DNA of 31,647 nucleotides from a virus (taxonomy: Duplodnaviria > Heunggongvirae > Uroviricota > Caudoviricetes): the IMG/VR virus record IMGVR_UViG_2681813201_000018, positions 1 to 31,647 of that record. The stretch is one strand, 5' to 3'. Shown here one piece after another: positions 21,001 through 24,000 of this stretch (positions are counted from its first letter, which is position 1; each line of letters starts with the position of its first letter). Position numbers: made by a program.

Positions 21001-24000
21001 GGGGTATGAACCAGATGGAAAAAATCACAACAGGTGTGTCATACACCACGTCAGCGGTGGGAACGGGCTACTGGTTCCTGCAGTTGCTGGACAGGGTTTC
21101 CCCGTCTCAGTGGGCGGCAATAGGCGTGCTGGGGAGTCTGCTGTTTGGTCTGCTGACGTACCTGACGAACCTGTATTTCAAAATCAGAGAGGACAGGCGT
21201 AAGGCGGCACGGGGAGAGTAGGTGATGAACCATGAAGAAATGAATCAGCGCTTCAGTCGTCTGGAAAATGAAATTGCTGAACTGAATAAAAAACTGTCGG
21301 CGCTGATGCCTTCTGAAGATGAAAAAAAACGCCGCGATGAGCAGTTTGCTGCGTTTGACGATTATTGTCGGAAAGTGATGAGCAGAAATCTCGCAGAGTG
21401 TTTCAGTATTCATAATGATAATTGCAGTGAGCTGGAATGGGAGTGTAACCGGCCATCCTTTGTTGTATCCGGTGATGACGGGAAAATCACCATATCAGAA
21501 AATGGAAAAGTAACACTGCCATCGCACCAGCACAGTGAGACGCTCATTGAATTTGCCATTGATTACCTGAAGAACAATAAAAAACAGGGGCTGATGCAGC
21601 GCATTGGTCGTTGCATGGGGTATCTGCAGGTAGCCGCTGAGATTGAAGCGCTGGCCAGTGGTGCTGATAAGGATGCAATTGTGCGGGAGGCTCTTCTTCG
21701 TAATTTTAATACTCCACCCTTTAAAAAAGTGCCGGCTTACTGGCTTCATCCCGGACTGACTTATCTGAAAGTGCGTATTTAGTGGGCCTGGGACAGCGGC
21801 TGAATATTTAATATATCCATGAACACAAAAATCAAATACGGCCTGTCGGCTGCCGTTCTGGCGCTGATTGCCGCAGGTGCTTCTGCGCCTGAAATTCTCG
21901 ACCAGTTTCTTGACGAAAAAGAAGGTAACCACACCACGGCATACCGTGATGGTGCGGGTATCTGGACCATCTGCCGTGGAGCCACCCGGGTGGATGGTAA
22001 GCCTGTTATTCCTGGCATGAAGCTGTCGAAGGGGAAATGCGACCGGGTTAACGCCATTGAGCGTGATAAGGCGCTGGCATGGGTGGAGAAAAACATCAAA
22101 GTGCCACTGACTGAACCCCAGAAAGCGGGGATCGCGTCATTCTGCCCGTATAACATTGGCCCCGGTAAGTGTTTCCCGTCGACGTTTTATAAACGAATTA
22201 ATGCAGGCGATCGCAGGGGAGCGTGTGAAGCGATTCGCTGGTGGATTAAGGACGGAGGCAGAGACTGCCGTATCCGCTCAAATAATTGCTATGGTCAGGT
22301 ATCCCGTCGTGACCAGGAGAGCGCGCTGGCGTGCTGGGGTATCGACAGATAAGCAGAATATTTTGCTGAAAAATGACGTTGGCCAACGCGGACGGATAAC
22401 ACGAAATCCTGCGAACTGGCAAAACCTGAGTGAATAAAAGTAAAAACCCCGTTTGTTAGCAGCAGGTGGGGTTTTGTGTTTCCTGACTCCGGAAAAGTCA
22501 AAGGAGAAAGTGTGTTTGATTTTAGCAAACTGATTCGGGAGATTTGAGTGATGGCTGAAAAATTATCTACCTGGAAGTTCATTCTTATCTGGCTGGTGTT
22601 TGTGATTATGGTCTCCGGTTATTTCATCGGTCAGATACGCTGGTGGTGAAATGAACCGCGTACTGTGTGTGGTCATCATTGCCCTGCTGGTGGCCTGTGG
22701 TGCGCTTAGTCTGGGGCTGAATCATTACCGTGATAACGCCATCACCTACAAAGCGCAGCGCGATAAAAAAGCCAGAGAGCTGGAGCTGGCAAACGCAACC
22801 ATTACTGATATGCAGGTGCGCCAGCGCGATGTTGCTGCGCTCGATGCAAAATACTCAAGGGAATTAGCTGATGCGAGAGCTGAAAATGAAACTCTGCGTG
22901 CTGATGTTGCCGCTGGTCGTAAGCGCCTGCGGATCAACGCCACCTGCTCCGGTACCGTGCGTGAAGCCACCGGCACCTCCGGCGTGGATAATGCAACCGG
23001 CCCCCGACTGGCAGACACCGCTGAACGGGATTATTTCATCCTCAGAGAACGGTTGATGACAATGCAGAAGCAGCTGGAAGGGGCACAGGACTATATCCGC
23101 ACTCAGTGCCTGAACTAAGTTTTGCGGATGCGCCGTATCGTCGCTGTATTCCCTCATTAACAGAGACCGCAGCCCGACAGGGAGACTCCTCTGCGCGAGT
23201 GTGCGGGGATAATCAAAAACGATACACACCGGGGTTTACCGCGTTAACGGAGCGCGGCGTTGTCCCCTCATAGTCGCTGGTCCGGTGCGATGGTGGAAGA
23301 AACCGGACTACATTACAAATGATAACCATTATCATTTTGCGGGTCCTCCTGGTGGGGTGGGCCTGAACACGGGGCGGGCGGCGCGGAAAAAGGCGCATTT
23401 TTTGATTTTTATGGCACCATCACCACCAGTGTAAGTTGTTGATATATAGAAAAATAAAAATTTTTAGTGTCGAATCTGGTTGTTTTTTGTTCATCACTGG
23501 TGTGTGTTTACATAATTTTCAGGGGGAGTTATGGATCGTGAATTAAAAAATCTGCATCTGAATATTTCCCAACTGGCCGCATTATCCGGTGCTCATCGAC
23601 AGACTGTTGCGGCTCGGGTAAAAAACATAAGCCCAGCCGGTGGTCATGAGAGCAATCTCAAACTGTACCGACTGACAGATATCCTTGCCGAGCTGATGAA
23701 AGCTCCTCTGCCTGTAGATAACGAGGAAATGGATCCTCATGCGCGTAAAGCATGGTACCAGTCAGAACGTGACCGACTGAAATTTGAGCAGGAAACTGGT
23801 CAGCTTGTGCCAGTCAGTGATGTCAGGCGGTCCTTTTCTGTCGTGGTGAAAGCGATAGTTCAGGTACTGGAAACCTGGCCTGACCGGCTGGAGAGGGACA
23901 GGGGGTGGACCGCATCACAACTGAATGAAGTACAGATTGTGGTTGATGAGATCCGCGACACACTGGAAAAGGCAGTCATTGACTGTTGTGATGAGGCCGA

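Follow-up and report, generated by a model that had tools for sequence, protein, structure and literature searches.

A probable lambda-type cos site between the lysis and terminase genes of a lambdoid Escherichia coli prophage

In phage lambda the heptamer GGGTCCT, which we take, after Wieczorek & Feiss 2001, to be cosQ, is separated by 23 nt from a cosN reading CG/GGGCGGCGACCT/CG; cos is located immediately upstream of the terS-terL gene pair, R2 is inverted within cosB, and R3 and R2 flank an IHF site. A high degree of conservation is reported for the 7-bp cosQ, and rules have been formulated for the core of a lambda-like cosN (PMC4669245). Lambda cosN is two-fold symmetric at 10 of 16 bp, and R3 corresponds to bp 50-65 (PMC9026076). 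Gifsy-1 is lambda-like as well, with 12-nt ends differing from those of lambda at bp 8, 9 and 11, and a cosB of R3-I1-R2-R1 type (PMC4669245, PMC9026076). Closer to the locus described here are mEp213/LLS, mEp460, cdtI and PhiR40_1, all of them lambdoid phages of E. coli whose heads resemble that of Gifsy-2. In what follows, the window is the whole stretch of DNA analysed, 31,647 nt long. The small terminase (TerS) encoded in it is of the same family as that of mEp213/LLS, mEp460 and PhiR40_1 (50-68% identity; 35% for cdtI), and as that of Gifsy-1, Gifsy-2 and Fels-1 (42-51%).

The flagged stretch of the window sits between lysis genes and terminase genes of a lambdoid E. coli prophage, and is very probably a complete lambda-type cos site (cosQ-cosN-I2-cosB). 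This reading is based on sequence homology, the order and spacing of subsites, gene families, and the finding that cosB and the N-terminus of TerS vary together; from these data we infer where the strands would be nicked, that the proteins would bind, and that the site would be active in this prophage. Once the region is aligned with the true lambda DNA ends, all lambda cos subsites are found, in lambda order. The element is of a known and well-understood kind, and implies no new mechanism. It has been left unannotated here, a cos feature being marked at this place in none of the public records inspected. The interval initially proposed, 23119-23530, holds in its right part, since functional cos extends approximately from 23341 to 23500, whereas the left 220 bp (23119-23340) are conserved DNA downstream of Rz, outside cos. 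The leftmost subsites are the following:

23341 to 23347, plus strand: cosQ, the predicted packaging-termination signal GGGTCCT, identical to the lambda heptamer and conserved in spacing
23370 to 23385, plus strand: cosN, CG/GGGCGGGCGGCG/CG, placed by junction alignment with lambda, LLS, cdtI and yong2

The sequence-only reading had pointed to a G-rich block followed by a T-rich segment, and to its resemblance to lambda cosN. Both components are present, as ACGGGGCGGGCGGCGCGG at 23369-23386 and the AT-rich AAAAAGGCGCATTTTTTGATTTTTAT at 23387-23412, and the alignment with lambda cos, proposed at the time as a check, bears out the resemblance. The G-rich block is homologous to lambda cosN, retains the left half GGGCGG and the 5'-CG-3' on both sides of the 12-bp interval, and is preceded, 31 bp upstream, by a conserved cosQ. 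The window reads GGGTCCT-24 nt-CG/GGGCGGGCGGCG/CG, its cosN conforms to the rules for the lambda-like core, and by our own count 10 of its 16 bp are two-fold symmetric, as many as in lambda. The distance from cosQ to the left end is 31 bp in the window, 30 bp in lambda, and 29 bp in the group made of mEp213/LLS, mEp460, cdtI and PhiR40_1. The heptamer is invariant in 52 of 52 public contigs with this cosN, while adjacent bases vary. The window (31.6 kb) contains a single copy of the composite GGGTCCT-N(18-28)-CGGGGCGG, which none of 100 shuffles reproduced. The GC content falls from 0.78 at 23340-23379 to 0.23-0.38 across 23400-23520. cosQ did not feature in the original description of the region.

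Similarities with phages carrying the same TerS family extend beyond cosN. mEp213/LLS, mEp460 and PhiR40_1 share with the window cosQ, the left nick context CCACG/GGGCGG, the right flank CGCGG, the I2 block, a CATCA-type R3 and the TGTTCnnCA of R1; cdtI differs in cosB, and the window differs from all these phages in details of cosB and in residues of the TerS wing. The Salmonella elements Fels-1 and Gifsy-2 can be aligned with the window through cosN, I2, R3, R2 and R1, but the cosN core of Gifsy-2 is much more divergent, and in both, as in the Citrobacter phage Chris1, AGGTACT takes the place of the GGGTCCT of the window.

The AT-rich region on the right had been indicated as the place where cosB and IHF sites should be expected. 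The region indeed carries an IHF consensus without mismatch, along with R-like repeats that follow the lambda order:

23386 to 23414, plus strand: I2-like spacer (bp 15-43 from the left end), rich in A and T and containing the tracts A5, T6 and T5
23416 to 23426, plus strand: R3-like putative small-terminase binding element, core CCATCAC at 23417-23423 (bp 46-52)
23432 to 23444, minus strand: I1-like predicted IHF site, TATCAACAACTTA, an exact match to WATCAANNNNTTR
23466 to 23474, minus strand: R2-like putative element, inverted, reverse complement TTCGACACT
23490 to 23498, plus strand: R1-like putative element, TTCATCACT, with the inverted 8-mers CACCAGTG/CACTGGTG

For the A/T tracts of the I2-like segment PMC4856287 may be compared, and the R3-like element occupies a place equivalent to that of lambda R3. 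Conservation is concentrated in discrete blocks: the GGC..TTTTT block of the spacer and the CATCA(C/T)CA block at R3 are kept in nine related phages, in which the TGTTCnnCA block at R1 is invariant. The IHF consensus has three exact matches in the window, about 0.007 being expected per 150-bp stretch, and one of them lies between the R3-like and the R2-like element; among 23 distinct natural variants, every substitution inside this site falls on the NNNN positions, 23435-23438. The R-like cores start at 23417, 23467 and 23491, in the orientation plus, minus, plus, as in lambda. The core at R3 matches YCRWCAC, and TTCRWCACT has three matches in the whole window, two of them in cosB in inverted orientation; these patterns were chosen after viewing the data, and the R elements share a core of 6-9 nt only. 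A repeat scan of the window at a threshold of at least 8/10 returned the inverted pair only, and the same script recovers lambda R3, R2 and R1 as a positive control. The R2-like element has its homologue in Gifsy-2, where CAGTGTCGAA/TTCGACACTG form a perfect inverted pair. Three R-like elements, with R2 inverted and the IHF site separating it from R3, would form a complex cosB between cosN and terS. This cosB is more compact than that of lambda (R3 to R1, 73 vs 102 bp; terS ATG at bp 160 vs 191), and the R sequences are unrelated, with a CATCAC core in the window and CGTTTCC in lambda.

The genes next to the site are those expected from its position:

23531 to 24007, plus strand: small terminase TerS, DUF1441 / PHROG 141 (Pfam DUF1441, E=2e-49)
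24004 to 26127, plus strand: large terminase TerL, lambda gpA family (Pfam GpA_ATPase, E=2e-81; GpA_nuclease, E=6e-84)

The terminase gene had been placed about 150 bp downstream of the site, and its ATG at 23531 lies in fact 159 bp after 23372, the likely first base of the left end. It had also been called Nu1-like, which is apt for position and function and not for family. The protein is a DUF1441 member matching PHROG 141, 'terminase small subunit', with E=6e-69, whereas lambda TerS belongs to Phage_Nu1, and the Phage_Nu1 profile PF07471 gave no match to it even at E<=10. A weak BLASTP alignment joins its N-terminal HTH to Nu1 residues 1-62 (24% over 62 residues, E=0.012), and hhalign with Nu1 returned E=0.002, but with a probability score of only 13%. 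No relative was found in the PDB by sequence, and a single-sequence AlphaFold2 model (pLDDT 54) is too poor for fold comparison. RefSeq labels the protein only as 'DUF1441 family protein' among the 12 genome matches listed. By position and PHROG 141 membership, TerS qualifies as a functional analogue of Nu1. TerL is 24% identical to lambda A over the full length (E=1e-18), and is presumably the enzyme that nicks cosN. A portal gene and a protease-capsid fusion are found further downstream.

That the AT-rich region is cosB is also suggested by the way it evolves, forming a specificity cassette with the N-terminus of the small terminase:

23400 to 23780, plus strand: candidate packaging-specificity cassette, made up of cosB and the initial ~80 terS codons, delimited by identity between the window and phage Stx2_499

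Identity between the two sequences is ~100% over 22881-23380, falls to 82% at 23381-23429 and to 52-64% over most of 23430-23735 (18% in a short gapped block, 23519-23535), and rises again to 76% at 23736-23785 and to 94-100% over 23786-24535. In the 52 public contigs an identical cosQ-cosN is followed by one of two cassette classes. This mosaic pattern provides what we regard as the best independent support for a cosB at this place. Lambda and phage 21 offer a parallel, in that cosB is swapped as a unit with the DNA-binding N-terminal part of TerS, while cosQ, cosN and TerL are unchanged; the lambda/21 swap has been shown genetically, whereas that of the window is deduced from the natural mosaicism of two prophage lineages. 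The 21hy and N15hy left-end segments have been described (PMC4669245). The recognition helix HRQTVAAR is nearly unchanged between cassettes, most differences lying in the predicted wing or farther on. A co-variation of the recognition helix with the R core (CATCAC vs CATCAT) was considered and discarded as not clean, HRQTVAAR being nearly invariant and PhiR40_1 breaking the correlation between wing and R core.

By homology with lambda, the DUF1441 small terminase would bind R3, R2 and R1 (23416-23498) on concatemeric DNA, and IHF would bend the DNA at 23432-23444. The assembly of TerS and IHF on cosB would anchor the gpA-family large terminase on cosN, where staggered nicks, on the top strand between 23371 and 23372 and on the bottom strand most likely opposite 23383/23384, would leave the 5' overhangs GGGCGGGCGGCG. 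Packaging would then run rightward, the terminase genes entering first, and cosQ (23341-23347) and cosN would end it at the next cos.

The length of the overhang deserves consideration. Since cosN is 2 bp shorter in the window than in its nearest relatives (mEp460, cdtI and PhiR40_1), a 12-nt stagger and the conserved CGCGG right flank cannot both be in lambda register, and the cohesive end may measure 12 nt, the length that we favour (23372-23383), or 10 nt. Records of related phages with a DUF1441-type TerS begin at the homologous position, in favour of the cos reading. LLS has a 5' cohesive site, GGGCGGCGCGCT, annotated at positions 1-12, though this 12-nt site is itself an inferred one (PMC12315714); the cdtI record begins at the homologous G, GGGCGGGAGCGT, and that of yong2 directly after the 12-mer. 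The record of ASU11, a mitomycin-induced phage, lacks exactly 44 nt spanning cosN (23365-23408 of the window), and so would look an assembly of virion DNA with physical ends there. None of the 43 IMG/VR and 9 metagenome contigs with the site starts or ends at it, however, which counts against that reading. Literature searches with the exact 12-mers, GGGCGGGCGGCG and others, returned only unrelated human and plasmid sequences, and those on yong2 and ASU11 nothing relevant. The competing view keeps the same cos and assumes a 10-nt cohesive end, GGGCGGGCGG (23372-23381), the bottom strand being nicked opposite 23381/23382 at a point that the flank CGCGG(A/G)A, and not a fixed 12-bp stagger, would set. 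It arises because this flank, invariant in nine related phages, sits here at 23382-23387, and relatives with the 12-mer have two extra bases (GGGCGGGAGCGK/CGCGG); moreover, 9-nt 5' ends have been experimentally determined for Cr-LKS3, a phage distantly related, whose TerS resembles DUF1441 (PMC9303873). Yet a 12-bp stagger also falls here between G and CG, and the conserved CG flank is thus kept; symmetry is no better with 10 nt (8/14, vs 10/16 with 12 nt, own count), and the geometry of the TerL dimer probably fixes the stagger. On balance, a 10-nt end dictated by the flank is rather unlikely, although to be taken seriously, and a shade less likely is the wider proposal that this short and widespread cosN is cut to a 10-nt end, the bottom nick being placed, in this clade of terminases, by the invariant CGCGG or by the distance from cosB instead of a fixed stagger.

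Other explanations bear on the nature or the use of the site. The element could be a true cos by descent, unused by its own, defective prophage, and serving at most as substrate for an induced co-resident prophage of the same TerS/cosB specificity. The region is 100% identical to that of CP-1639, a prophage reportedly called cryptic in its 2005 description, and partners for cross-packaging must be common, because the same cos is found in 555 of 5426 complete E. coli genomes (~10%), in up to 5 copies per genome. Packaging starting at the cos of a resident prophage has been discussed (PMC4669245). However, the window has full-length ORFs for TerS, TerL, a W-like adaptor, the portal and the protease-capsid fusion, phage 1720a-02 and the induced phage ASU11 carry near-identical cos regions, and the window is distinct from CP-1639, with only 41% coverage and no stx1; we consider disuse improbable. 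Much harder to sustain is the notion that G-rich block and T run, coming after the lysis genes, work as a transcription terminator or as another kind of RNA structure. A GCGC stem followed by a T run is there, but the stem is 4 bp long, at least 5 bp being required, and the fold is no better than that of shuffled sequences (z-score 0.00; 91 of 200 shuffles did as well or better), which speaks against an intrinsic terminator. A terminator scan of 22600-24100 found none, and Rfam returned no match. Besides, late transcription in lambdoid phages has to pass through cos to reach the head genes. Hardly any credit can be given to headful (pac) packaging, in which the likeness to cosN would be coincidental: no support for it was found, and a TerL of the gpA family, together with a full set of cos subsites, argues against it.

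In the lambda-type cos reading, the site fixes where the virion chromosome of a common group of E. coli prophages should start and end; that it defines the genome ends of the induced phage, as originally suggested, is conditional on the prophage being inducible. Should the 10-nt cut prove true, related terminases of gpA type would show natural polymorphism in the length of the cohesive end. In practice, the site may help to orient phage genomes, to read sequencing data from induced lysates, and to predict mutual packaging by co-resident prophages, which is predictable because these share cosQ-cosN but carry two cosB/TerS specificity cassettes.

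Between the lysis and packaging genes lies what is almost certainly a cos site of the lambda type, an ordinary and well understood element that the public records examined leave without annotation. The gap (23119-23530) is non-coding, and leads from Rz to a plus-strand packaging and head operon, which also encodes a head-tail adaptor resembling W, a portal of the lambda family and a fusion of ClpP and capsid. The features are the following, bp being counted from the inferred left end at 23372.

22651-23118, Rz, last lysis gene (Pfam Phage_lysis)
23341-23347, plus strand, cosQ heptamer GGGTCCT, placed by alignment with the lambda junction
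23386-23414, I2-like segment with A5, T6 and T5 tracts
23417-23423, R3-like core CCATCAC, bp 46-52 (lambda R3 is bp 50-65)
23432-23444, minus strand, I1-like exact IHF consensus, TATCAACAACTTA
23466-23474, R2-like inverted element AGTGTCGAA
23490-23498, R1-like element TTCATCACT
23531-24007, plus strand, small terminase TerS, 158 aa (Pfam DUF1441, E=2e-49; PHROG 141 'terminase small subunit')
24004-26127, plus strand, large terminase TerL, 707 aa (GpA_ATPase and GpA_nuclease)

Rz overlaps at its end with a plus-strand ORF, 23106-23273, that has a match to PHROG 6954 'Rz-like spanin'. Another, 23285-23434 (plus strand), spans cosQ and cosN, matches PHROG 5188 (function unassigned) and is a 'hypothetical protein' in phage 1720a-02; its call as a gene is probably spurious and owed to the conservation of cos.

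The sequence-only reading had described a G-rich block and a T-rich segment resembling lambda cosN, about 150 bp upstream of the small terminase gene. Both are in place (ACGGGGCGGGCGGCGCGG at 23369-23386, with A and T tracts following), the terS ATG is found 159 bp past 23372, and GC content goes from 0.78 (23340-23379) to 0.23-0.38 (23400-23520). Resemblance to lambda was confirmed by bringing together both termini of the lambda record, which are the real virion ends, and comparing the junction with the window. The lambda junction reads ...GATAATCATTATCACTTTAC GGGTCCT TTCCGGTGATCCGACAGGTTACG|GGGCGGCGACCT|CGCGGGTTTTCGC..., its counterpart ...GATAACCATTATCATTTTGC GGGTCCT CCTGGTGGGGTGGGCCTGAACACG|GGGCGGGCGGCG|CGGAAAAAGGCGC.... 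We take the heptamer to be cosQ, which occupies bp 48473-48479 of lambda (Wieczorek & Feiss 2001). Its spacing from the inferred left end is 31 bp in the window, against 30 for lambda and 29 for LLS, cdtI and mEp460. The composite cosQ-N(18-28)-CGGGGCGG occurs once in the window and in 0 of 100 shuffles, and the window conforms to all four published rules for lambda-type cos sites (PMC4669245). Natural variation of cosQ was reported as not apparent (PMC4669245); AGGTACT takes the place of the GGGTCCT of lambda and the E. coli phages about 30 bp upstream of cosN in Fels-1 and Gifsy-2 (Salmonella) and Chris1 (Citrobacter), and the invariant part at this position in a nine-phage alignment is GGT.CT only.

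A Fur-box-like palindrome resides at 23315-23333, 8 bp upstream of cosQ, with the palindromic sequence GATAACCATTATC at 23321-23333. It agrees with the consensus GATAATGATAATCATTATC at 15 of 19 positions (manual count). Close versions are found in mEp213, cdtI and VT1-Sakai; lambda has GATAATCATTATC at the equivalent place, and mEp460, PhiR40_1 and LLS lack the palindrome.

The AT-rich stretch in which cosB and IHF sites had been expected indeed carries an exact IHF consensus and R-like elements, ordered downstream of cosN as the I2-R3-I1-R2-R1 array of lambda (PMC9026076, PMC4856287). The exact IHF consensus has three matches in 31.6 kb, the cosB one among them, and TTCRWCACT three in the window, two of which are the R2-like and R1-like elements. 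A positive control run on lambda recovered its R3, R2 and R1; scored with the same script, the window repeats are weaker, the inverted pair alone reaching 8/10. Blocks invariant in the nine-phage alignment (same TerS family) are CGCGG.A, GGC...TTTTT, CA.CA (R3) and TGTTC..CA (R1), and in Gifsy-2 the places of R2 and R1 are taken by a perfectly inverted pair, CAGTGTCGAA/TTCGACACTG. The bases critical for IHF are the same in all 23 distinct natural versions of the window-type region, and variation is seen at three of the four N positions.

The strongest independent evidence for a putative cosB is a cassette pattern, seen by aligning the window with the Stx2a phage Stx2_499 in 50-column steps. 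Identity is 98-100% over 22881-23380 (Rz, cosQ, cosN), 82% over 23381-23429, 52-64% over most of 23430-23735 (cosB and the first ~70 terS codons), with a short gapped block (23519-23535) at 18%, then 76% (23736-23785), 94% (23786-23835), and 96-100% over the remaining terS and the terL start, to 24535. Such drop and return argue that about 23400-23530 and the DNA-binding end of TerS function jointly. An identical cosN is found in 52 public contigs, followed only by the cosB/TerS classes of the window and of Stx2_499. The cassette is the natural counterpart of the left-end hybrids lambda/21 and lambda/N15, which served to define packaging specificity (PMC4669245).

The gene had been called Nu1-like. 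Position, size, PHROG family and cassette behaviour mark the DUF1441 protein as a small terminase, but it is not a member of Pfam Phage_Nu1. Nu1 may be a homologue: likeness extends only over the helix-turn-helix at the N-terminus (24% identity across 62 aa, E=0.012), and hhalign gave E=0.002 with a probability of 13%. No PDB relative was found by sequence, and a single-sequence AlphaFold model was too poor to use.

A terminator or RNA element was searched for, and none emerged from terminator scan, folding (z-score 0.00) or Rfam. Both the gpA family of TerL and the complete set of cos subsites speak against headful packaging. Records of relatives bear on the physical ends. TerS matched 56 phage records (tblastn), 3 of which (LLS, cdtI, yong2) begin at the homologous point. 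Positions 1-12 of LLS are annotated as '5' extended single-strand cohesive site GGGCGGCGCGCT', inferred, and identical to the putative cos of mEp213, in phages with Gifsy-2-like heads (PMC12315714); cdtI starts with GGGCGGGAGCGT, and yong2 with CGCGGG, immediately past a 12-mer. The 'complete genome' of the mitomycin C-induced phage ASU11 (ON416862.2), otherwise 97% identical in the cos region, lacks exactly 44 nt spanning cosN (window 23365-23408; ASU11 about 3235-3240). The missing stretch was probably lost in assembly and not truly deleted, as expected, circumstantially, if virion DNA has physical ends there that the assembly could not bridge. A realistic caveat would concern activity of the site in its own prophage, not its identity as cos; the terminase of a neighbouring prophage may use it too, several copies of the same cos being present per genome.

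The length of the cohesive end is weighed on sequence grounds. A 12-bp stagger from the putative top-strand nick (23371|23372) would set the second nick at 23383|23384, keeps the CG flank and gives two-fold symmetry at 10/16 bp; a nick tracking the invariant flank CGCGG(A/G)A (23382-23387) leaves a 10-nt overhang, with symmetry at 8/14 bp (both manual counts). The window cosN is 2 bp shorter than in mEp460, cdtI and PhiR40_1 (GGGCGGG--CGGCGCGG vs GGGCGGGAGCGGCGCGG), which, as the invariance of the flank, speaks for 10 nt. Overhang length varies in the wider family: for Cr-LKS3, which is distantly related and has a similar TerS, 5' ends of 9 nt were determined by experiment (PMC9303873). The 12-nt end is somewhat favoured, and the 10-nt end is a possibility, which would be the sole mildly novel point. 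VT1-Sakai cosN has one additional G (GGGCGGGCGGGCGCGG), and mEp460_4F5 cosN is 3 bp shorter than mEp460; these may be real polymorphisms, or errors of sequencing or assembly where the DNA is GC-rich or comes to an end.

The 461 bp around cos are 100% identical in prophage CP-1639 and 97.8% in phage 1720a-02. The window holds no stx and no tRNA genes. The region from Q to the NanS-p esterase (16630-18378), site of stx2A in matching Stx phage records, carries an anti-repressor-like ORF (185 aa, 17109-17666; PHROG 2379, E=1e-86). Among 5426 complete E. coli genomes, 555 carry the cos stretch, some of them up to five times; in the 12 matches listed, the sole annotation at the matching place is 'DUF1441 family protein'. 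Two cosB/TerS cassettes occur after identical cosQ-cosN. Multiple copies and alternative cassettes suggest that co-resident prophages have scope for cross-packaging, and also partial insulation.
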